DNA from: an uncultured Clostridia bacterium
Lineage (GTDB): Bacteria; Bacillota; Clostridia; TANB77; CAG-508
DNA: 64,000 bases
Assembly (NCBI GenBank): GCA_934183325.1
Contig: CAKPSH010000004.1
Coordinates: forward strand, 27,433 to 91,432
Reading direction: 5' to 3'
In this document: positions 7,351 to 42,130 of the stretch, piece by piece
Layout of the letters: each line of letters begins with the position of its first letter
Numbering within the stretch: position 1 is the first letter of the stretch
The notes under the pieces: generated by a model
Told to the model about the DNA's origin: nothing
Databases searched by the model: none
Seen by the model: only the letters and a program-made list of their open reading frames with translations
Program-made: the position numbers and the translations under genes

Positions 7351-9240
7351 ATGAACTATATTTTAATATTTTTAATTGTATGTGGTGCTGTTGCTGGTAT
7401 ATATTTCTTAATAAGAAGTAAAAAAAATGCAGAAGTAGAAAAAGATGTTGAAGTAGATGACAAAACGTATTCACTAGAATTGATGTCTAAATTTGTAAAA
7501 AAGAGACTAGATGATATTACAAAAGTTAATTTATATGATATTGGTCTTTCAGAAGAAGAGTTAAAAAGAAGAAAGAATAAAAAATATGAATTAAAAAAAG
7601 CTTTAAAAGGATGTACTTATGGAGATGTCAATGATAAAAAATATGTAAAAGGGATAATGTTTGATTTATTACTTAAAGAATATGGAGTAGATGAAACAAA
7701 TATATCAAAAGCAATTCCTTTTGATGTTCCATCATTACTTACACCTCAAGATAAATTTGATATAATAATATATAAATATAAAAAAGAATTTGGATATGAG
7801 GCGCTTACACAACTTATAAAAAAATATAATTTAGCGGTTTTAAAATATTTGGAGGGAGAAGCAAAGCCTTCTTATGTTATAACTTCACAGGAAATTTGTG
7901 ATATATTTGAAAAAGAACAAATTCAACTTGAATTTGATGAAAAACTAGAAGTAGTAGTTCAAAGAATATATCAATATTATAAAGGATATAGTAGTATTGA
8001 TGAAGTAAGAGATATGAACATAGATGGTGTGTCTGGAGGTGTATCTGGTTTACCAGAATCATTCTTAAGCCAAGTAGCACAGACAGATGGGGATTATTTA
8101 GGACAAGTAATGGATAACAAAGTTCCAAGATCATGTGATAGTATATGGATATTCTTCCAAGGAAAATCAATAAGATTAGCATTTTTATCATTTGGAAGTG
8201 AAAGTGAACTAAAAAGAGTATGTCAAAATATTTATAAATATAATAATCCAGGACAGTTATCAGATTCAAATGGTTATAAAATCAATGAAATGAAAGATGG
8301 TTCACGTGTCGTTGTTGTTAGACCAAGTATGGCAGAGTCATGGGCATTTTTCGTAAGAAAGTTCGATGTTAAACGTGCAACTTTGGAACAAATTATTACT
8401 TTTGAAGGAAAAGAAATGGCAATTGATTTGCTAAAATTTTTAGTAAAAGGAGCAAGAATTATTTCTCTTACAGGAGAGCAAGGTTGTGGTAAAACAACAA
8501 TGCTTATGGCAATGATTGAAAATATATATGAAACATTAAATATAAGGGTTCAAGAGATGGCTTTTGAGTTACACTTAAGAAAAATCTATCCAACAAGAAA
8601 TATTTTATCATTAAGAGAGACAGAAACAATATCTGGACAGGAAGGTCTAGATGTTCAAAAAAAGACAGATGGTTCTGTTAATATCATTGGTGAGGTTGCT
8701 ACAGACCCAGTTGCTTCATGGATGATACAAGCCGCACAGGTTGCTTCAAAATTCACATTATTTACTCACCACGCAAAAACATTTCCAAATCTCGTTACAG
8801 CATTAAGAAACTCAATGTTAAGAACAGGTGTATTCAAAGATGAAAAAACGGCAGAAGAACAAGTTATTCAAGTATTGAATTTTGATATTCACTTAATAAA
8901 AGACTTTAGAGGAAGAAGATATATTGAAAGAGTTACAGAGTGTGTGCCAATAGAAAATGCAAATCCATATAATAGAGATTATAGAAACGAAAAAACAATA
9001 GAGGGAAAAATAGAAAAATTTATGGATAATGCAACAAATTATTTCCAAAATGTTACAGACAGACAAACTTATGAATATCATAACATTATGGAATTTAGAG
9101 GAGATAAATATGTTTTAACTCATAAAATATCTGACAAAAATATTAGAGAAATGAGAGAAAACATGGATGACGCAGATGCAAAGGATTTTGATGCATTTAT
9201 AGAAAAGTATTGGGGAAAACAATCAAAAGCATCAAAGTAA
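7351..9240 (+). CDS. tadA: TadA/CpaF-family secretion ATPase (VirB11/PilT superfamily) with N-terminal TM segment
   Basis: Walker A GEQGCGKTT, downstream Asp/His box regions; N-terminal hydrophobic helix ILIFLIVCGAVAGIYFLI. Confidence 0.75.
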   Translation: MNYILIFLIVCGAVAGIYFLIRSKKNAEVEKDVEVDDKTYSLELMSKFVKKRLDDITKVNLYDIGLSEEELKRRKNKKYELKKALKGCTYGDVNDKKYVKGIMFDLLLKEYGVDETNISKAIPFDVPSLLTPQDKFDIIIYKYKKEFGYEALTQLIKKYNLAVLKYLEGEAKPSYVITSQEICDIFEKEQIQLEFDEKLEVVVQRIYQYYKGYSSIDEVRDMNIDGVSGGVSGLPESFLSQVAQTDGDYLGQVMDNKVPRSCDSIWIFFQGKSIRLAFLSFGSESELKRVCQNIYKYNNPGQLSDSNGYKINEMKDGSRVVVVRPSMAESWAFFVRKFDVKRATLEQIITFEGKEMAIDLLKFLVKGARIISLTGEQGCGKTTMLMAMIENIYETLNIRVQEMAFELHLRKIYPTRNILSLRETETISGQEGLDVQKKTDGSVNIIGEVATDPVASWMIQAAQVASKFTLFTHHAKTFPNLVTALRNSMLRTGVFKDEKTAEEQVIQVLNFDIHLIKDFRGRRYIERVTECVPIENANPYNRDYRNEKTIEGKIEKFMDNATNYFQNVTDRQTYEYHNIMEFRGDKYVLTHKISDKNIREMRENMDDADAKDFDAFIEKYWGKQSKASK

Positions 9241-9266
9241 AAGATTTCCAGTGAAAGGAGAAAAAA

Positions 9267-19014: not shown

Positions 19015-19254
19015 AATCAATAATTAAGAGGTAAAATTTATAAGGATTTTATCTCTTTTTTGATTGCATAAATTATTATTATTAAGAATATTTTATATTT
19101 TATAATTTAAGAAAAATATATAACAAAATTCGAGTAATTATTATTGAAATGAACAAAAAATAGTATAGAGAATTATAATTTTTAAGAAATATATTGAAAA
19201 AGATATAAATAAAACAGTGAAAAAAATTAATGTTGTCAATTTTATTATTACTAT

Positions 19255-19294
19255 TAGAACCTTTGTCTAACACATAGAACCTTTGTCGAACATA
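19255..19294 (+). promoter_or_regulatory. Tandem 20-bp direct repeats (candidate operator) abutting the clpC -35
   Basis: tagaacctttgtctaacaca / tagaacctttgtcgaacata, 17/20 identical, immediately upstream of the TTGAAC -35. Confidence 0.35.
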
Positions 19295-19323
19295 TTGAAC
19301 TTAAAAAAATATATGATTATAAT
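19295..19323 (+). promoter_or_regulatory. Candidate sigma-A promoter of clpC (TTGAAC-17-TATAAT)
   Basis: -35 TTGAAC 19295-19300, 17-nt spacer, -10 TATAAT 19318-19323, 28 nt upstream of the RBS. Confidence 0.45.
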
Positions 19324-19351
19324 TTGAACAAAAAACAAAGGAGATAAAATT

Positions 19352-21793
19352 ATGTTAGATTATAAATTTACAAAAAGTGCAAATAAAGCAATAGAAATGG
19401 CTAGTGAAATAGCTGTAAAATTTGGACATAATTATGTAGGAACAGAACATTTATTATATGGATTGGCTAGTGAAAATACAGGTGTAGCATTTAAAGTATT
19501 AGAAAGACAAAATATTACACCTGATGATATTTTAGATGATATAGAAGAATTAATTGGAAAGAATGATGAAGGAGTTGATAAAACATTAGGATTTACACCA
19601 AGATGTAAAAAAGCTTTTGAAAATGCATATAGAGAAGCAAAGAAAATTAGTTCAGATTTTGTAGGAACTGAACATATACTAGTTGGCATTGTTAAAGAAA
19701 CGGATAGTATAGCCGTTAGAATTTTAAATGATTTAGGTATAGATATACAGAAAATGTATAATGAAATAGTTAAGATATTAGATGAACAAAACTTTAGTGA
19801 TGAAGATTTTATGAAAAGTATAAACATAAAGAATAAAGGAAGTTATGGAATGACGAATACATTAAATCAATATAGTGTTGATTTAACAATAGAAGCTCAA
19901 AAGGGAAAGTTAGATAGTATTATTGGAAGAAATAAAGAAATAGAAAGGGTCATACAAATATTAACTAGAAGAACAAAAAATAATCCTTGTTTAATTGGAG
20001 AGCCAGGAGTAGGAAAAACAGCAATAGTTGAAGGATTAGCAGAAAAAATAGTAGAAGATGATGTGCCAGAAATGTTAAGAAATAAAAGAGTAGTATCATT
20101 AGATATTTCTAGTATGGTAGCAGGAGCAAAATATAGAGGAGATTTTGAAGAAAGAATAAAAAAAGCACTTAATGAAGTTAGAAAAGCAAAAGATATTATT
20201 TTATTTATAGATGAAATACACACAATAGTAGGAGCAGGAGCAGCAGAAGGAGCAATAGATGCAGCTAATATTTTAAAACCATTATTATCAAGAGGAAAAA
20301 TACAACTAGTAGGAGCAACGACAATAAATGAATATAGAAAATATATAGAAAAAGATGCTGCATTAGAACGTAGATTTAGTTCAGTATTAGTTGAAGAACC
20401 AAGTATTAGTGATACAGTAATGATTTTAAGTGGAATAAGAGATAAATATGAATTACATCATAATGTAAAAATAAATGATTCAGCCTTAGAAGAGGCGGTA
20501 ATTTTATCATCAAGATATATAAATGATAGATTTTTACCAGATAAAGCAATAGATATATTAGATGAAGCAGCATCAACAGCAAAGATGAAAAAATATAAAC
20601 TGCCTGAAAAGATAAGAGAAATGGAAGAAGAAATGCTTGAAACGAAAAGAGCAAAAGAGGAGGCAATTAAGACACAGAATTTTGAAGATGCAGCAATATT
20701 AAGGGATAAAGAGGAAAAACAAAAAGCAAAAATGAATGATGAAAAAGAAAAATGGTCTGAAAAAAATGGAAGTGAAAGAATCGAAATTACAAAAGAAGAT
20801 ATAGCAAATATAATATCAAGCTGGACTAATATCCCTGTAAAGAAAATAAATGAAGATGAAAATGAAAAATTGAAAAATTTAGAAAAATCATTACATCAAA
20901 GAGTAATAGGACAAGAAGAAGCAATTAGTGCTTTAGCAAAAGCAATCAGAAGAGGAAGAGTTGGCTTAAAAGATCCTAATAGACCGATAGGTTCTTTTTT
21001 ATTCTTAGGACCTACTGGAGTTGGAAAAACAGAGACAGCAAAGGCTTTAGCAACAGAATTATTTGGTAATGAAAATGCAATGATTAGGTTAGATATGTCA
21101 GAATTTATGGAAGCACATTCAGTAGCCAAATTAATAGGTGCTCCTCCAGGATATGTGGGTTTTGACGAAGGAGGACAATTAACTGAAAAAGTAAGAAGAA
21201 AACCATATTCTGTTATTTTATTTGATGAAATAGAGAAAGCACATATAGATGTAATGAATATATTATTACAAGTATTAGAAGATGGAAGACTTACAGATTC
21301 AACAGGGAGAACCATTGATTTTAAAAATACGGTAATAATATTAACCTCCAATATAGGAGCTTCAAAAATAAATAAAAAGAATACTTTAGGATTTACCGAA
21401 AAAGTTAATGATGAAAAACAAAGAGAATATGAAGATATAAAAAATGAAGTTATGGAAGAAGTAAAAAAAGAGCTAAAGCCAGAGTTTATAAATCGTATAG
21501 ATGAAATAGTGGTATTTCATAAATTAAATGATGAAGAGATAGATAAAATAATAGAACTATTATTAGTACAAGTGGAAAAAAGATTGTTAGATAATGGATA
21601 TAATATAAAAATTGATAGGAGCGTAATAGAAGAAATAAAAAAGAAAGGATATGACAAAAATTATGGAGCACGTCCATTAAGAAGAAGTATTCAAACATTA
21701 GTTGAAGATAAGATAGCAGAAGAAATTTTAGAAGGAAAATTGAAAAATAATCAAAAGTTTTCACTAGAAAGCAAAAAAGTATTTACAAAGTAA
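19352..21793 (+). CDS. clpC: ATP-dependent Clp protease ATP-binding subunit ClpC (double AAA+)
   Basis: Two Clp-N repeats, two Walker A sites (GEPGVGKTAI, GPTGVGKTE), UVR-like linker; 813 aa. Confidence 0.85.
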   Translation: MLDYKFTKSANKAIEMASEIAVKFGHNYVGTEHLLYGLASENTGVAFKVLERQNITPDDILDDIEELIGKNDEGVDKTLGFTPRCKKAFENAYREAKKISSDFVGTEHILVGIVKETDSIAVRILNDLGIDIQKMYNEIVKILDEQNFSDEDFMKSINIKNKGSYGMTNTLNQYSVDLTIEAQKGKLDSIIGRNKEIERVIQILTRRTKNNPCLIGEPGVGKTAIVEGLAEKIVEDDVPEMLRNKRVVSLDISSMVAGAKYRGDFEERIKKALNEVRKAKDIILFIDEIHTIVGAGAAEGAIDAANILKPLLSRGKIQLVGATTINEYRKYIEKDAALERRFSSVLVEEPSISDTVMILSGIRDKYELHHNVKINDSALEEAVILSSRYINDRFLPDKAIDILDEAASTAKMKKYKLPEKIREMEEEMLETKRAKEEAIKTQNFEDAAILRDKEEKQKAKMNDEKEKWSEKNGSERIEITKEDIANIISSWTNIPVKKINEDENEKLKNLEKSLHQRVIGQEEAISALAKAIRRGRVGLKDPNRPIGSFLFLGPTGVGKTETAKALATELFGNENAMIRLDMSEFMEAHSVAKLIGAPPGYVGFDEGGQLTEKVRRKPYSVILFDEIEKAHIDVMNILLQVLEDGRLTDSTGRTIDFKNTVIILTSNIGASKINKKNTLGFTEKVNDEKQREYEDIKNEVMEEVKKELKPEFINRIDEIVVFHKLNDEEIDKIIELLLVQVEKRLLDNGYNIKIDRSVIEEIKKKGYDKNYGARPLRRSIQTLVEDKIAEEILEGKLKNNQKFSLESKKVFTK

Positions 21794-31866: not shown

Positions 31867-31967
31867 AAAAATATAGTAAAATATTTATGTCTATTTGTTG
31901 ATATCCTGGTTTCAGGACGACTCGAGACATCCGCAAGAAAAAAACAATGTTTCTGGGAGGAAAAACA

Positions 31968-32429
31968 ATGAAATTATTTCACAAAGAAAATGGACAAGAG
32001 ACAGTCTATGTGCAGATGCAGGATATTTTGTATCTGGTGCATGAAAGTAATGTTTCTGTTCCGGCGTCTATCTTCGAAAAAGTCTTTTCAGTAGGAGCGG
32101 TTTTTGTTACTGATGCAAACCGGTTTGACTTTATAAGGTTTGAAGAAGAACATGAGGTTGACTTTTTTAAGAAACTTGAGTTTGTTATCGACTATGACCA
32201 GTACAAAGATTTCTCTGAAGAACAGCTTATAGCAGAGGTGAAAAAGTTAGAGGATAAGGCGAACGAGATCGCTGAAAAATGGAACGATATGACATCAGAA
32301 GAGAGAAGAGAAAACAGCGAGCTATACGAAGAACACCAGAATCTCGACTATATGTGCAGGTTTTTGTGTGAGATTTACTTCGTGAAACACGGCAAGAGGT
32401 CTATGCCATTTCCTGACTTTGTAAAATAA
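31968..32429 (+). CDS. Hypothetical protein on a compositionally atypical (about 40% GC by eye) islet
   Basis: ATG after GGGAGG RBS; ORF GC well above the surrounding window; followed by GC-rich hairpins; no family recognised. Confidence 0.45.
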   Translation: MKLFHKENGQETVYVQMQDILYLVHESNVSVPASIFEKVFSVGAVFVTDANRFDFIRFEEEHEVDFFKKLEFVIDYDQYKDFSEEQLIAEVKKLEDKANEIAEKWNDMTSEERRENSELYEEHQNLDYMCRFLCEIYFVKHGKRSMPFPDFVK

Positions 32430-35796: not shown

Positions 35797-36291
35797 ATGA
35801 AAAAGAAAATTGTAATTATGATATTAATAGTGATTTGGATGGGAGTGGTATTTTCATTTTCAAATCAAGGTGCAACAGAATCAAGTGGAGTCAGTGGAAA
35901 GGTAACTGAAAGAATAGTAGATTCATTACATATAACAGAAGGATGTAATCAGGAAGATGCAAAAATCGTGTTAAAAAATATCGAAAATATAGTAAGAAAA
36001 ATAGCACATTTTTCGATATATACAATTGGAGGAATTTTAATATATTTAGAATTAAATTTATATAATATATCAGATTCTAAAAAAATAATATATTCACAAA
36101 TTCTAGGTTCTCTATATGCAAGTACAGATGAGCTTCATCAATTGATAATACCTGGTAGATCAGGAGAAATAAGAGATGTAGTAATAGATTCCTGTGGGAT
36201 ATTTACAGGTATAATAATTATATTAATAGTATTAACAATTATAGAAAAAATAAAAAATGAAATAAAAATTAAAAAAACTATTGACAAGTAA
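35797..36291 (+). CDS. VanZ-like family membrane protein
   Basis: 4-TM small protein with the conserved central loop typical of VanZ/YoaI-like proteins. Confidence 0.45.
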   Translation: MKKKIVIMILIVIWMGVVFSFSNQGATESSGVSGKVTERIVDSLHITEGCNQEDAKIVLKNIENIVRKIAHFSIYTIGGILIYLELNLYNISDSKKIIYSQILGSLYASTDELHQLIIPGRSGEIRDVVIDSCGIFTGIIIILIVLTIIEKIKNEIKIKKTIDK

Positions 36292-36309
36292 TTATATAAA
36301 TAGTATAAT
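36281..36309 (+). promoter_or_regulatory. Consensus sigma-A promoter for tRNA-Leu (TTGACA-17-TATAAT)
   Basis: Perfect -35 TTGACA 36281-36286, 17-nt spacer, perfect -10 TATAAT 36304-36309, 20 nt upstream of the tRNA 5' end. Confidence 0.55.
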
Positions 36310-36329
36310 AATCATCGTCAGTTGAAAAT

Positions 36330-36416
36330 GCAGATGTGGCGAAACTGGCAGACGCACAGGACTTAAAATCCTGCGGGACTTATACTCCCGTGCCGGTTCG
36401 ATTCCGGCCATCTGCA
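36330..36416 (+). tRNA. tRNA-Leu (anticodon TAA), class II with long variable arm; CCA encoded at 36417-36419
   Basis: Acceptor stem gcagatg/catctgc, D-loop gcgaaactggcagacgc, anticodon loop ggacTTAAAatcc, long variable arm, T-arm gccggttcgattccggc. Confidence 0.85.
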
Positions 36417-36423
36417 CCAAGAC

Positions 36424-36456
36424 AAGACTTAAAGCTTAGCTTTAAGTCTTTTTTGT
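36424..36456 (+). terminator. Rho-independent terminator after tRNA-Leu
   Basis: 12-bp stem aagacttaaagc/gctttaagtctt, 3-nt loop, TTTTTT. Confidence 0.55.
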
Positions 36457-36651
36457 TTTATATTCAGAAAAATTCTAATAAAAATAGAATTTTGTAAATA
36501 AATATGATAAAATAAATTCAAAATGAAAATCAATAAAAAAGAATATTAATATGTAAAATTATTATTTTTATATAAAGAAAAGAATTAGATTGAGAAAAGT
36601 ATAGCTTTTATTTATATGGTTAAATAATAAATATGGAAGGGGAAAAGATTA

Positions 36652-37356
36652 ATGCTAAAAGAAAAAACACTTAAATTATTAAATACAGAAGAAAAAAATT
36701 TTAAAAATTTATTTTCAATATGTATAGGCAATATGTATAATATACAAAATAGATTTATTGAATATATAGGTGAATATTCTAGGTGGGATACTGATCTAAC
36801 AAAATGTTTTTTACAATTAGATGAAAGAAAATATGATGTTGAATATATAGGAACAACAAGTACAACGGATAACTTTTGGTATTCTGCTGAGCTTGAAAGT
36901 GTAATTCCAGATAAAGGTGCAAAATTAATAAAGAAAGCTCGTAAGAATCTAGAAAAATTTGGAGTAAAAGATTTAGCAAGTAAAAAAGTGCAGATAAGTG
37001 GTGATATAAATGGATATAATTTATCAATGATTTATATGGTTTTTACTAATGCTAATACGGCATATTTTTGTGGAGGATCAGATGACGCTAAGATATATAT
37101 GTTTGTAAAAAATCTAGATAAACAACTTTTTAGAAGAATTAATTCATTGGAATTTTCAAATAGAATTTTTGAAATTGTTTCAACATTTAATGTAAATCAT
37201 AAATTAATGATAAAAGCAATATTAACCGAAAATGATATTGAGTACTATGAAGAAGAAAATAATATTATTGCCAAATTTAATAAAAATTCTATACTCACAG
37301 TTTCTTTTAATACAAATAATTTATTAGAAAAGTGTTCCGGAAATTTGTCTTTATAA
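36652..37356 (+). CDS. Hypothetical protein (tRNA-adjacent accessory region)
   Basis: 234-aa ORF with GGAAGGGGAAAAG RBS; no family recognised. Confidence 0.4.
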   Translation: MLKEKTLKLLNTEEKNFKNLFSICIGNMYNIQNRFIEYIGEYSRWDTDLTKCFLQLDERKYDVEYIGTTSTTDNFWYSAELESVIPDKGAKLIKKARKNLEKFGVKDLASKKVQISGDINGYNLSMIYMVFTNANTAYFCGGSDDAKIYMFVKNLDKQLFRRINSLEFSNRIFEIVSTFNVNHKLMIKAILTENDIEYYEEENNIIAKFNKNSILTVSFNTNNLLEKCSGNLSL

Positions 37357-37410
37357 AGATGAAAAGACGAAAAAGCATTATAGTAAAAAAGTGAAAGGAA
37401 AACGAAGAAA

Positions 37411-38469
37411 ATGAACATGGAATATTCTAATATGATAGAACATTCTGATTTATCGAGCATAGATAAAAAGAAATTAAGGGATTTCATAGAAGTATTAAAT
37501 AAAAACATGATCCAGATAACTTTCCTAATTATACAAAAGAAGAACTAAAACATATATTTCAAATTGCTAAAATTAGTTCAAAATTGCAATTTGAAATGTG
37601 GAAAATGTTGCCAGACGATGTTGTTAATGATTCAGAAAATATAGAAATTTTTGAAGAGGTTCTTGATAATAGATTTGGAGAATATATAAAAGAGATTATT
37701 AATCTATCAGAACATGAAAATGATGAAAAAAAGCTGAATATTATAGAAGGTATTATTATTTCCATAAAAAAGAACTATTAGCAATAAGTAAAGATGTTTC
37801 TCCATTTTATAAAGTTGATATGGAAAGAGAATTTTTAGATTTATATGCTAGACAATATGATAGAGCATTAGGTATACAAGCTAATAGAATTCAAGATGTT
37901 ACTTATGATGGCAAGAATATTCCTGTAATCCTTTTGGAATTTCAAATGAAAATATTTCTATAATTCAAGCTGCTATTGAGTATCATGAACATAAAGAAAG
38001 AAAAAAGCGTGTTACTGATGATGGAAAATTACGAAATTTAGCTTGTCAATATAATGTTGACGATAAAAAATATGCATCTTTGGTAAAAATAAGTAATCTA
38101 TTAAAAGATGCAGATGCATTAGACAGAGCTAGGTTTGGAAAGAAGAATGAAAATAGATGGAGCTTAGATGCAGACTATTTAAAAAGCAATACAGCTAAAA
38201 GTATTTCTATGTTAAGATTTTCAGAAGAATGCAATTTTATATTTAAAGAAAAAGAAAGTCAAACTTTAGGTGGACTTTCTGAAAATAGTGTAGAGAAAAT
38301 ATTTGAAAGCGAACTAAATGAATTCAAAAGGCCAAAAATTCAAATGTCCTCAATAAAAGAAGTTACTTCTGAAATAACTGCAGTTCAAAAGAAAACAATT
38401 ATGGATGTCTTTAGAGATATTCGAGCAAGAATCAAAGAAACTTTAAAGACATTGAAAGATGAGAAGTAA
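37411..38469 (+). pseudogene. Multiply frameshifted gene remnant of unknown function
   Basis: Four ORF pieces read consecutively in three different frames (37411-37548, 37537-37781, 37764-37961, 37928-38469). Adjacent pieces overlap by a few codons and join into one ~350-aa protein if two +2 and one +1 frameshifts are corrected. Confidence 0.5.
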
Positions 38470-38472
38470 AAC

Positions 38473-38931
38473 ATGGTAAAAAAAGAAATAGTTTATTCTA
38501 AGGCTTTTAAAGAAGTTAATGAAATAATTAAATTTTTTCCTAGAAGTGAATATGAAAAAATTTCAAAATATTTTATCAATTTTATTGAAGAAAATATGAA
38601 TAACGATTATAATTATATAGTAAAACATATAGATGATCTTCAAAATCAAGAAATGCTAGAAGAAACTAAAATTATGTTAGCAATTATATATAGAGAATTT
38701 ATAGCATCAAATGAAGGAAGAAAACAAATCTATGAAACAGAAAAATTAGAAATTATTCAGGAAGAAAAAAGAAATTTTGAAAAATACAATCCAGAAGGTT
38801 TATTTAAAAAGCAAAATGATAAAGAAAAAAGTGATGAAGTATCAGAAAATATGCAAATTATTGAGCATAAGCCACAAAATTTATTTTATAGAATATTAAA
38901 TAAATTAGTTGATTTCTTTAAAGGTAAATAA
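38473..38931 (+). CDS. Hypothetical protein
   Basis: 152-aa ORF 4 nt after the upstream stop; no family recognised. Confidence 0.4.
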   Translation: MVKKEIVYSKAFKEVNEIIKFFPRSEYEKISKYFINFIEENMNNDYNYIVKHIDDLQNQEMLEETKIMLAIIYREFIASNEGRKQIYETEKLEIIQEEKRNFEKYNPEGLFKKQNDKEKSDEVSENMQIIEHKPQNLFYRILNKLVDFFKGK

Positions 38932-39029
38932 CTTTTTATAATCAAAATTAGAAATGAATTAATATATAAAATAGAGTCAGATAAAAATAGGGTACTAATT
39001 AATATAAAGAAAAATGGGGGAAAAAATAT

Positions 39030-39785
39030 ATGGAATATAATAAAAATGAATTAAATAAAGTATTAAATGAAATAGAAAGTGATAATAATAAAGACAAGCA
39101 AGAAAAAGCAAAAAAGAATAAAAAAGGTAGAAATTTAATAAGAGCTCTTTTAGGAATTATATTAATAATAATTGCGATGGGAATGCTATTTATAATATAT
39201 GATTATGTATATGGAAGATATGGTGCAGTTGTAGACATGAAACCGATAATATATTTATATCCAACTGAAGATATGCAAGTCTCTGTTAAATTAAAATATA
39301 ACAATAATATAATTGTTTCATATCCGGAGTATTCAAATGGATGGAATGTATTAGCAAAAACAAATGGGACAATGACAGATTTAGTAACGAATAGGGAACT
39401 ATACTCATTATATTATGAAAGCGAAAATGTAGTAAAATTTAAAATGGAAAAAGATGGATTTGTTATTAATAAGAATGATTTAATTACATTTTTTGAAGAA
39501 AAACTAGCAACTCTAGGACTTACAGAAAGAGAAGCAGAAGAGTTTATAATATATTGGTTACCAATTCTTCAAAAGAATGAATATAACTATATAAGATTTG
39601 CAACAACAGAAGAGATAGAAGAAAATACACCATTAGAGATAGAACCTAAACCAGATACAACTATTAGAATTTTAATGACATATAAGGGATTAAAAAAGCC
39701 AATAGAAATTGAAGAACAAAAATTAATTACTCCAGAAAGAAATGGATTTACAGCAGTTGAATGGGGAGGAACAGAAATCGAGTAG
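39030..39785 (+). CDS. Hypothetical membrane-anchored protein
   Basis: Charged N-terminus, one TM helix (LLGIILIIIAMGMLFIIY), extracytoplasmic domain; hairpin terminator follows (39815-39840). Confidence 0.4.
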   Translation: MEYNKNELNKVLNEIESDNNKDKQEKAKKNKKGRNLIRALLGIILIIIAMGMLFIIYDYVYGRYGAVVDMKPIIYLYPTEDMQVSVKLKYNNNIIVSYPEYSNGWNVLAKTNGTMTDLVTNRELYSLYYESENVVKFKMEKDGFVINKNDLITFFEEKLATLGLTEREAEEFIIYWLPILQKNEYNYIRFATTEEIEENTPLEIEPKPDTTIRILMTYKGLKKPIEIEEQKLITPERNGFTAVEWGGTEIE

Positions 39786-39978
39786 ATATGATAATAGTAT
39801 TATTTAAGAAGAAGCTTTTTATAGCTTCTTTTATTTATAAAAGATAAAGAGAGCACTGTTGTAAATTTCAAAAAATAATACAATATAGTGAGAAAAAGAA
39901 AGATAGAAAAAAATCGAAAAGTATGATACAATATCAACGAATAAAAAATAAATATCATAATTTGAAAGGATGATACCA

Positions 39979-41421
39979 ATGGATAAAAAATATGACATAA
40001 TAATTGTTGGAGCAGGACCAAGTGGAGTATTTACTGCATATGAACTAATTCAACTAGGACTTAACAAAACAAAGAAAATAGTAATTATAGAACAAGGAAA
40101 AAAAGTAGAAGATAGAATTTGCCCAATAGAAAAAGTAGGAAAATGTATAAAATGTAAACCATATTGCAACATTACAAGTGGATTTTCAGGAGCAGGAGCT
40201 TTCTCAGATGGAAAATTAACATTACCAAATAAAGATGATGATCATATTGAAGTTGGTGGAAATTTACAAGATTACTTAGGCGTAGAAAAAACAAAAGAAT
40301 TAATGTTTTATGCAGATGATATTTATTTAAGATTTGGAGCAGATCCAAAAGTAGAAGGCTTGGAAAACTTAGATAAAATAAATGAAATAGCTAAGAAAGC
40401 TAAAGAAAATGATATTCTATTATGTAATTGTCCAATTAGACATTTAGGAACAGAAAAAAGTCATGAACTATATGGAAAAATTGAACAATATTTATTAGAA
40501 AATAATATAGAAATCATGTTCCAAACAAATGTAAAAGATTTAATAATAGAAAATAATAATATAAAAGGAGCAATAATAGAAAAGTCAGGACATCCAGAAG
40601 AAAATGAAAATATATATGCAGATACTGTTATACTTGGAATAGGAAGAAAAGGAGCAGAATGGCTTGCAGAAATGTGTGAAAAACACAATATAGAAAACAC
40701 AGCAGGAGTTGTTGATATTGGTGTAAGATATGAATTGCCAGATGAAGTTATGAAAGATGTAAATAAATATATGTATGAAGGCAAATTTGTTGGATATTTA
40801 CCACCATATGGAGATAAAGTAAGAACTTTCTGTCAAAACCCAAGTGGATTTGTTGCAAATGAAGTATATGATAACAATTTGACATTAGTAAATGGACATG
40901 CATATAAAGACAGAAAAAGCACAAATACAAATTTAGCAATATTAGCATCACATCATTTTAATAATCCATTCAAAGAACCAATAAAATATGGAATGAATAT
41001 AGCAGAAAATGCAAATCAATTAGGAAAAGGAAATGTTTTAGTTCAAAGACTAGGAGACATATTAAATGGAAAGAGAACATGGGAAAAAGAACTTGAAAAC
41101 AATAACGTAGTTCCTACATTAAAAACAGCAATAGCTGGAGATATTACTTATGCAATAGGTTATAGAACAATGGTGGATATACTAGAATTTATAAAAAGGA
41201 TGGATAAGGTTATTCCGGGATTTGCAAATCCAGATAATTTATTATATGCAGCAGAAATAAAATTCTATTCTAATCAATTAATAATAGATAATAATTTTGA
41301 AACAAGTATAAATGGATTGTATTCAATTGGTGATGGAGGAGGACTAACAAGAGGATTAATAATGGCATCTGCAAGTGGAATACAAATGGCAAGAGTAATT
41401 GACAGCAAAAACGAAAAATAA
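39979..41421 (+). CDS. FAD-dependent oxidoreductase (uncharacterised FAD-dependent dehydrogenase family)
   Basis: DIIIVGAGPSGVFTAYEL dinucleotide-binding motif; CxxC..C cluster; C-terminal GDGGG motif. Confidence 0.7.
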   Translation: MDKKYDIIIVGAGPSGVFTAYELIQLGLNKTKKIVIIEQGKKVEDRICPIEKVGKCIKCKPYCNITSGFSGAGAFSDGKLTLPNKDDDHIEVGGNLQDYLGVEKTKELMFYADDIYLRFGADPKVEGLENLDKINEIAKKAKENDILLCNCPIRHLGTEKSHELYGKIEQYLLENNIEIMFQTNVKDLIIENNNIKGAIIEKSGHPEENENIYADTVILGIGRKGAEWLAEMCEKHNIENTAGVVDIGVRYELPDEVMKDVNKYMYEGKFVGYLPPYGDKVRTFCQNPSGFVANEVYDNNLTLVNGHAYKDRKSTNTNLAILASHHFNNPFKEPIKYGMNIAENANQLGKGNVLVQRLGDILNGKRTWEKELENNNVVPTLKTAIAGDITYAIGYRTMVDILEFIKRMDKVIPGFANPDNLLYAAEIKFYSNQLIIDNNFETSINGLYSIGDGGGLTRGLIMASASGIQMARVIDSKNEK

Positions 41422-41455
41422 TATAATGTAGAAAAACTTGAAAGGATGAGCAAAA

Positions 41456-41614
41456 ATGAAAGTCTTTATTACAGCGTGTATCCTTGGAACTATTGGCGGT
41501 TTGATCATTCGGGTAACATTCGATGAAAAACAAAAACGAAAGGAAAAAATTAAAAAGAATATAATGTTGGTAACGGCTTGCATTGTGATTCTTGCGATTG
41601 CAAGTAAGATTTGA
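41456..41614 (+). CDS. Possible 52-aa two-helix membrane peptide
   Basis: ATG after AAAGGATGA; MKVFITACILGTIGGLIIRV..KQKRKEKIKKN..IMLVTACIVILAIASKI; followed by a hairpin terminator; below ORF-track cutoff; locally elevated GC. Confidence 0.35.
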   Translation: MKVFITACILGTIGGLIIRVTFDEKQKRKEKIKKNIMLVTACIVILAIASKI

Positions 41615-41823
41615 GAGATGCAAAAGAGTATAATTCTGTTAAAGGAGTTATGCTCTTTTGCGTTTTTTATAGATATATAAAATAATAATACTCTTTATAT
41701 AAGATAATGCAATTACACGATAATAAAAGTTACTATATATACTGTAAAGTTTGAAATTTTATTATTAACTTTTTATACAAAAAATATAATATACTAAAAA
41801 ATTAAAGAAATGGTAGAATTTTC

Positions 41824-41852
41824 TTGACATATTAAAGAATCCAGTATATAAT
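41824..41852 (+). promoter_or_regulatory. Consensus sigma-A promoter of the S10 ribosomal operon (TTGACA-17-TATAAT) with ~280-nt leader
   Basis: -35 TTGACA 41824-41829, 17-nt spacer, -10 TATAAT 41847-41852. Confidence 0.5.
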
Positions 41853-42130
41853 ATTAAAGCTATAAATTTGCGATGAAACAGAATGTGGCTACAAATATTA
41901 AGTAACAATATTTGGAGGGAACTTCTGCGGAGCATGTCATGGCTTAGACCAGGCGATAAGTTTTATATATAGAAACGCTTATCCCAAGAAAAATATTGCA
42001 AAATAACTTGGGATTAAATGTTATCATAAAAAGAAACACTAGGAAGCGTTTTAAAACTTGCCGTAATAATTTAGCTAAAGCACAGATTTTTAGCAAGTTA
42101 AAAAGATTTAAAAGGAGGGAAAAAATTACT

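Follow-up and report, generated by a model that had tools for sequence, protein, structure and literature searches.

Probable remnant of an HD-domain gene cassette decaying in a strain-variable slot downstream of tRNA-Leu in an uncultured gut Clostridia bacterium

In the 64,000-nucleotide (nt) stretch of an uncultured Clostridia genome analysed here (assembly GCA_934183325.1, contig CAKPSH010000004.1, positions 27,433 to 91,432; "the window," to which coordinates refer unless an allele or contig is named), a broken coding region lies at 37411-38469, between tRNA-Leu(taa) and a gene for a flavin adenine dinucleotide (FAD)-dependent oxidoreductase. With a probability of about 0.8, we consider it the decayed remnant of a three-gene cassette, A-BC-D, that occupies a strain-variable slot between these two genes and has been inactivated in this species. 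The original cassette would have comprised a helical A protein of 115 amino acids (aa), coupled via a ATGGATGA overlap to a BC protein of ~860 aa, followed by a D protein of ~150 aa. It has been eroded by deletions, two of three between short direct repeats, and by slips of one or two bases in A-runs, and would have been lost here because it was dispensable or costly.

The coding sense of 37411-38469 shifts among all three forward frames, in pieces that overlap, and tblastn with an intact homologue identifies a coding relic (E = 4e-78 over 37927-38436 and 2e-27 over 37727-37927). An initial annotation, made from the sequence alone, had described a gene of ~350 aa with three frameshifts; the three frames, the overlapping pieces and the coding character stand, but the relic is that of two genes, A (115 aa) and the HD-domain gene BC (~860 aa), which together span 2915 bp in the conspecific allele L062, and the damage consists of two deletions and two indels. 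As the most complete conspecific allele (96–99% identical), L062 served as the reference for these lesions. The parts of the remnant, and the D gene that follows it, are:

37411-37697, + strand: relic of gene A, about 95 of 115 codons, frameshifted in the A-run 37501-37505
37687-37697, + strand: junction of deletion 1, a single copy of TAAAAGAGATT (L062 alignment)
37698-37926, + strand: relic of BC residues ~206-272, frameshifted in the A-run 37726-37732 (tblastn E = 2e-27)
37926-37927, + strand: junction of deletion 2, with L062 2149-3392 lost (L062 alignment)
37927-38469, + strand: relic of the BC C-terminus, residues ~687-864, with no indels relative to L062 (tblastn E = 4e-78)
38473-38931, + strand: intact gene D (152 aa), small partner of BC and found after it in all lineages

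Specifically, deletion 1 removed 613 bp between two copies of TAAAAGAGATT that are both present in L062, thereby fusing A to BC residue ~206, and deletion 2, which is common to the window allele, L001, L073 and L076, removed 1244 bp encoding BC residues ~273-686, including the H...HD...H metal ligands. The first A-run has gained two bases (A5 in the window vs A3 in both L062 and L001) and the second has lost one (A7 vs A8 in the same two alleles). These four lesions account for the remnant to the base: 2915 - 613 - 1244 + 2 - 1 = 1059 bp, the length of 37411-38469.

Gone with deletion 2 are the residues equivalent to H619, H623, H655-D656 and H669. What survives is YHEH and KDADALDRARFG (38104-38139), in the tail of the HD domain, followed by the C-terminal helices; a homology search with the reconstructed relic, of the kind that the initial annotation had suggested, found HD-domain relatives, and KDADALDRARFG is an invariant C-terminal HD-domain motif of the BC family. 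The conceptual translation of the relic matches only unnamed metagenomic proteins, its C-terminal half resembling HD-domain (PF01966) proteins of up to 550 aa and its middle resembling N-terminal fragments. A Pfam scan of the reconstructed 353-aa relic gave no match, the HD domain no longer being scored, and neither the relic nor D nor the 251-aa protein encoded downstream (TM251) found a usable match in NCBIfam, PHROGs or PADLOC. As in pseudogenes generally, intact full-length homologues exist and the local copy has disrupted frames and deletions. Because the HD catalytic residues are deleted, the catalytic core is lost from the relic, which is predicted to have no enzymatic activity now.

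To place these lesions among strains, alleles were collected through an exact look-up of the VanZ protein encoded upstream, followed by blastn mapping. Six allelic states were found in the species (conspecific identity 96–99%):

L062/L063: full length apart from one frameshift, an extra C in BC
L073/L076: deletion 2 only
L001: deletion 2 plus its own 625-bp deletion 3, with D truncated
window/L075/L077: deletion 1, deletion 2 and two indels
L074: DUF6882 gene retained; cassette and 5' part of the 251-aa gene replaced by 1.3 kb
L072: block 36458-39832 wholly absent, the tRNA terminator joined straight to FAD-upstream sequence

The gene order in L062 is DUF6882, A (115 aa), BC, D (152 aa), the 251-aa protein and the FAD gene. 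Deletion 3 of L001 is flanked by 14-nt repeats (TATTTAAAAAGCAA; window 38176-38189 and 38801-38814). The replacement in L074 carries an unrelated 301-aa open reading frame (ORF) of unknown family (L074 9710-10615), and L072 has a different gene, for a 256-aa low-complexity lipoprotein-like protein (L072 8745-9515), directly before the FAD gene; family-library scans of these replacement genes returned nothing useful. None of the alleles recovered at the tRNA-Leu locus has an uninterrupted BC.

The window-type allele is the common one. L075 and L077, from other samples and independent metagenome assemblies, differ from the window by one single-nucleotide polymorphism (SNP) over the 3551 bp from the tRNA to the FAD gene, about a dozen more contigs share its ORF pattern, and identical D proteins are on record for 41 contigs and identical TM251 proteins for 34. 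Because independent assemblies agree and deletion 2 is common to otherwise differing alleles, the lesions are, on this sequence comparison, genuine and not sequencing errors. Gene decay, as the initial annotation had proposed, is thus borne out by identical lesions in independent assemblies and by nested deletions among conspecific strains, and its suggested comparison of the tRNA-Leu to FAD interval yields six alleles that differ in content or lesions, one of them empty (L072). Judged by these alleles, the cassette is inactivated and is being whittled away within the species by deletions and A-run slips.

What the cassette looked like before decay can be read from its relatives. The repaired BC retrieves about 40 intact proteins, either 850–867 aa long or, with A fused, 963–986 aa, together with relatives of about 1310–1340 aa; where A is not fused, it overlaps BC in the conserved ATGGATGA, an arrangement of translational coupling. 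The BC protein begins with a helical N-terminal region, continues through a beta-rich middle domain and the FNNNREG helices, and ends in a metal-dependent phosphohydrolase domain of the HD/phosphodiesterase (PDE) fold. Intact relatives match the Pfam HD family PF01966 (E = 2e-7 to 9e-6, over the 22-bit cut-off) and have its metal-binding residues, and an AlphaFold2 model (pLDDT 80, pTM 0.70) shows the all-alpha HD fold. The residues conserved in the family, H619, H623, H655-D656, H669, H706, D747 and D752, lie in or beside the part deleted in the window.

Beyond the HD domain, library searches with intact BC, A and distant relatives (Pfam, NCBIfam, PHROGs, PADLOC) gave nothing useful. For the N-terminal 555 to about 590 residues of BC, ahead of the HD domain, no PDB structure matched in fold; Foldseek returned no PDB match below E = 0.001, and sequence searches of the PDB gave only a marginal match to the HD-GYP protein 4mcw (E = 0.019 with the BC family profile). 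More distant BC relatives (23–39% identity, 800–1640 aa), found on low-GC (guanine-plus-cytosine) gut contigs, have the FNNNREG helices and the beta-rich middle domain as well as the HD domain, of which Pfam sees only the last. A D-like gene accompanies even those BC relatives of only 23–31% identity, and the D family is large and unannotated (1272 clusters at E <= 1e-3), D itself having no Pfam match and, in a profile search, no PDB match. For the helical A protein the only PADLOC match is BrxA (E = 0.004); BC, its distant relatives, D and the relic have no match in PADLOC-DB 2.0.

Inactivation of BC is also seen outside the window species: in L064 (4461-7021) the gene is frameshifted between KYY and AFSYD, and in P0017 it has an out-of-frame tail, both lesions being independent of those described above. 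In viral contigs we found the isolated HD domain only (22–33% identity) and no cassette. One such case, from IMG/VR (L085 9047-10450), is a 467-aa phage protein that joins an N-terminal phrog_4776 domain (function unassigned) to the same HD subtype (KDADALDRVRFG), for which PDB searches gave spurious MBP matches only; a 177-aa stand-alone version of this HD subtype is encoded at L080 9986-10519. The plasmid collection held generic HD-domain proteins only, and literature searches on "HD-CE" and the conjugative leading region found nothing specific.

Related gut Clostridia have intact A-BC-D cassettes at unrelated positions, and the edges of the unit are defined by homology between contexts, which runs from 20–100 nt ahead of A to where D ends. 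The DUF6882 and 251-aa genes that adjoin the relic in the window are not part of the cassette in these other lineages. In L067 the cassette lies 620 nt downstream of a tRNA-Gly gene, adjoining TnpV and between 66-nt direct repeats (9257-9322 and 13610-13675; TATTCAC-rich, 86% identity), and the region 8990-14264, with the cassette, an 88-aa ORF and TnpV, has a tRNA-Gly(tcc) gene on either side; 172 nt downstream of the first one, 22 nt of the tRNA 3' end and its flank recur (9220-9241). In L068 the cassette lies 210 nt downstream of tRNA-Gln, between enolase and ABC transporter genes. In L070/L071 it is carried by a conjugative element with RadC, ArdA, a relaxase and a DNA methylase, A being fused to BC there (969 aa; L070 10001-22705). 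The L070 element also has two extra D-like paralogues (16527-16973 and 19215-19682), which flank a gene for a large unannotated protein of 725 aa, and a further large unannotated protein (740 aa) is encoded ~0.8 kb downstream of the second. Thus, in three of six independent contexts the cassette has a tRNA gene no more than about 1 kb upstream of it. By our estimate, which takes about 50 tRNA genes per 1.8-Mb genome, chance would account for roughly 3%.

The setting of the remnant in the window is given by the following features:

36281-36309, + strand: promoter-like site of tRNA-Leu, TTGACA-17-TATAAT, sigma-70-like (12/12)
36330-36419, + strand: tRNA-Leu, anticodon taa (ARAGORN; Rfam RF00005, 59 bits)
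36362-36419, + strand: 58-nt 3' part of tRNA-Leu, anticodon loop to CCA, duplicated beside a foreign element in conspecific L236/L246
36424-36457, + strand: tRNA-Leu terminator, a 12-bp hairpin (36424-36450) plus T-run, the last sequence in common with the block-less L072
36458-39832, unstranded: strain-variable block, 3375 bp, with the DUF6882 gene, the A-BC relic, D and the 251-aa membrane protein gene
36652-37356, + strand: DUF6882 (PF21813) gene, 234 aa, intact (Pfam)
39030-39785, + strand: gene for the 251-aa protein TM251, with an N-terminal membrane helix and no family (ORF list, profile scans)
39970-41421, + strand: FAD-dependent oxidoreductase gene, a conserved flank under strong purifying selection

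The tRNA-Leu(taa), which the initial annotation had already placed here and whose extent ARAGORN and Rfam now set, is the one tRNA that ARAGORN found across the window. The three intact ORFs reported with it (36652-37356, 38473-38931 and 39030-39785) exist as well. Their description as orphans without recognizable families holds insofar as D and the 251-aa protein lack a Pfam family, and fails for the first ORF, which matches DUF6882 (E = 5.3e-11, 43 bits vs a cut-off of 23.9, 139 of 142 profile positions), for the relic, with its HD-domain relatives, and for D, a member of a family of >1200 clusters. Upstream flank genes are of housekeeping type (GNAT, spore photoproduct lyase, a tRNA-editing domain protein, VanZ), and downstream the FAD gene is followed by the S10 ribosomal operon. 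Farther upstream, a 160-aa ORF at 31947-32429 has about 34–40% GC within surroundings of ~24% GC; it has no Rfam match, and its called counterpart in conspecific contigs (153 aa) is without a Pfam family on record.

The block begins 39 nt past tRNA-Leu, directly after the terminator and so on the 3' side of the tRNA, and it is polymorphic with sharp edges among conspecific strains, L072 lacking it and L074 differing in content. The interval between the tRNA-Leu terminator and the promoter region of the FAD oxidoreductase is a strain-variable slot, which here holds intact DUF6882, D and 251-aa membrane protein genes beside a dead A-BC remnant. That this tRNA is used by mobile DNA is suggested by L236/L246, in which foreign DNA runs up to a 58-nt duplicate of the 3' portion of the tRNA (window 36362-36419), after which come the normal terminator and DUF6882; homology of L236 with the window begins at 36362 (99.9% identity). 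The element (L236 1-5710 / L246 1-7208; conspecific contig ERZ28615439 scaffold_6849) encodes a Mob_Pre relaxase, a ThsB-like TIR protein beside an 8xMP protein, and a 301-aa ORF, and at the contig end lie the first 171 aa of a protein weakly like an integrase N-terminal domain (2kd1, E = 0.01). The attL end of this element and the catalytic part of its putative integrase fall beyond the contig. We take these 58 nt of tRNA-Leu, duplicated in L236/L246 at the edge of a foreign element, as the attachment (att) core; judged from these junctions, tRNA-Leu is a live attachment site, with the 58-nt copy as the expected attR of a mobilizable element.

We therefore read the cassette as a mobile accessory module that would have arrived in the slot by horizontal transfer, and horizontal acquisition into a tRNA-adjacent hotspot is probably the better reading of the block. 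Several results weigh against it. The last 23 nt of the tRNA 3' end have no other copy in the window at up to 3 mismatches, and the best local alignments of the 58-nt core in 36451-42000 score 10, compared with 10.4 +/- 1.0 for shuffles, so that the downstream partial tRNA copy (attR) that the initial annotation proposed to look for was searched and does not rise above shuffle level. Family scans of the block ORFs found no integrase or recombinase, DUF6882 being the sole match, and precomputed Pfam labels within ±8 kb of identical conspecific contigs include no recombinase. Composition shows no break (GC 0.20–0.28 in the block vs 0.21–0.29 adjoining, about 24% throughout, skew unchanged). The block lies outside the attR of the L236 element, so that its insertion through tRNA-Leu is putative. 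No outgroup with the same synteny was present among 60 FAD-gene loci from other species. Against the reading as decay, and not against acquisition, stands the ratio of non-synonymous to synonymous substitution rates (dN/dS; window alleles vs L062 and L073, with few substitutions and suggestive only) of the BC C-terminal relic, 0.2–0.3, which may reflect only substitutions older than the inactivation.

Since the block has no att repeat, integrase or compositional anomaly, these features do not tell insertion apart from an ancestral block that was deleted in L072. Under this alternative, A-BC-D decayed in place, L072 and L074 are secondary variants and adjacency to the tRNA is coincidental; the missing repeat, integrase and GC or skew break are as it would predict, a hairpin plus T-run precedes both block edges such that deletion between similar T-rich sequences could yield L072, and the block is distal to the attR that the L236 element uses. 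We nevertheless consider it unlikely, given that the cassette sits at unrelated positions elsewhere, in half of the contexts near a tRNA against the estimated chance rate given above, and that it is also carried by a conjugative element. Moreover, the neighborhood of the FAD gene is not found in other species: in the scan of genome contigs, none of the 60 loci (best 87% identity) has VanZ, tRNA-Leu, DUF6882, TM251 or S10 nearby. DUF6882 genes also occur in an integrase-bearing predicted Fusobacterium island (bioRxiv 10.1101/2025.08.21.671586), this preprint being the only one in which our literature search met DUF6882. The old, eroded insertion at a tRNA that the initial annotation envisaged is thus upheld in part: the block is strain-variable and tRNA-Leu acts as a live att site, but the absence of an integrase and of a repeat of the tRNA 3' end, which it had noted, is confirmed by repeat search and family scans, and no composition break accompanies the block.

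A second alternative concerns D, which might be kept for a function of its own, e.g., as an antitoxin or immunity gene orphaned when a toxic BC was lost. Of the three genes, D alone has come through intact in the window; wherever a D-like gene occurs it has a BC-like partner, the conjugative element carries extra paralogues, and the family is a large one. Against this, D has accumulated 14 non-synonymous vs 2–4 synonymous changes (dN/dS of 0.66–1.35, compared with 0.00–0.04 for the FAD gene and 0.15–0.47 for the DUF6882 gene), small counts that may point to relaxed constraint; deletion 3 cuts the gene short in L001, L072 and L074 lack it altogether, and it has no PADLOC or Pfam match. A retained function for D is, on balance, improbable.

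The broken frame could also be a regulated state, through phase variation in the A-runs or programmed frameshifting. The indels do lie in A5 and A7 runs, related genes are frameshifted too (L062, L064, P0017) and the ATGGATGA overlap at the A/BC boundary is conserved, but an allele with both A-runs repaired would remain out of frame at two deletions and devoid of the HD catalytic residues. The runs are also short, the extra C of L062 lies outside any repeat tract, and every BC recovered at the locus is interrupted. We rejected phase variation for the window allele because of the deletions, and regard a regulated state as very improbable. Least probable are homopolymer errors of sequencing or assembly in a gene intact in the organism, which we rejected because, even though A-run length changes make up two of the four lesions and such sites are error-prone on some platforms, independent assemblies agree to within the single SNP above and many contigs share the ORF pattern, and because the 613-bp and 1244-bp deletions, the latter in four otherwise differing alleles, are not explicable by homopolymers.

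With the remnant read as a decayed A-BC-D cassette, its former role can be approached through the intact relatives. Four traits, namely mobile carriage, a patchy distribution, independent inactivation on several occasions and the conservation of a small partner gene, led us to suggest, tentatively, that low-GC gut Firmicutes carry in A-BC-D a mobile conflict module not described before, for defence, anti-defence or toxin-immunity. Its effector might be BC, acting as a metal-dependent phosphodiesterase that hydrolyses a nucleotide-type phosphoester, and the module would possibly consist of a BC of ~860 to 1640 aa, its D partner and A as a coupled or fused helical adaptor. Counting against such a function, neither PADLOC, NCBIfam nor PHROG function matches were found, nor a PDB fold match for the BC N-terminus. 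If the suggestion is correct, the frequent inactivation (window, L062, L064, P0017) would reflect a cost of carriage.

The feature itself is ordinary accessory-gene decay at a tRNA-linked hotspot, from a parent family that is uncharacterized and not demonstrably new in kind. The locus is a clean example of a dispensable accessory cassette eroding in an uncultured gut lineage of Clostridia, which is spore-forming and has ~24–28% GC, and it has little importance in itself; its six alleles form a natural time series of how deletions arise in a genome of 24% GC, through short direct repeats and slippage in A-runs. The relic also led to a widespread unannotated gene pair, BC-D, found on conjugative elements and beside tRNA genes, which is a candidate for functional screening.

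Among known systems, the BC HD domain belongs with the PF01966 phosphohydrolases and is structurally nearest to the C-terminal domain of PPX/GppA, class I cyclic-nucleotide phosphodiesterases and the PDE domain of SidE/SdeD. Its sequence similarity to any solved HD protein is marginal, BC has no ART, PPX or GAF-type partner domains, and the window copy has lost the HD dyad. With tRNA-linked genomic islands the locus shares its position downstream of a tRNA, strain polymorphism, accessory cargo, gene decay and the use of the same tRNA elsewhere by an integrating mobilizable element that left a 58-nt 3' duplication; it differs from integrase-mediated tRNA islands in that the window block has no integrase, tRNA direct repeat or compositional signature and lies outside the observed att site. 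The decay itself follows the course known for pseudogenes that arise through short-direct-repeat deletion and homopolymer slippage, two of the three deletions having end repeats of 11 nt or 14 nt and both indels lying in A-runs, and what sets it apart from ordinary bacterial pseudogenes is that six allelic states of one decay process are present in one species.

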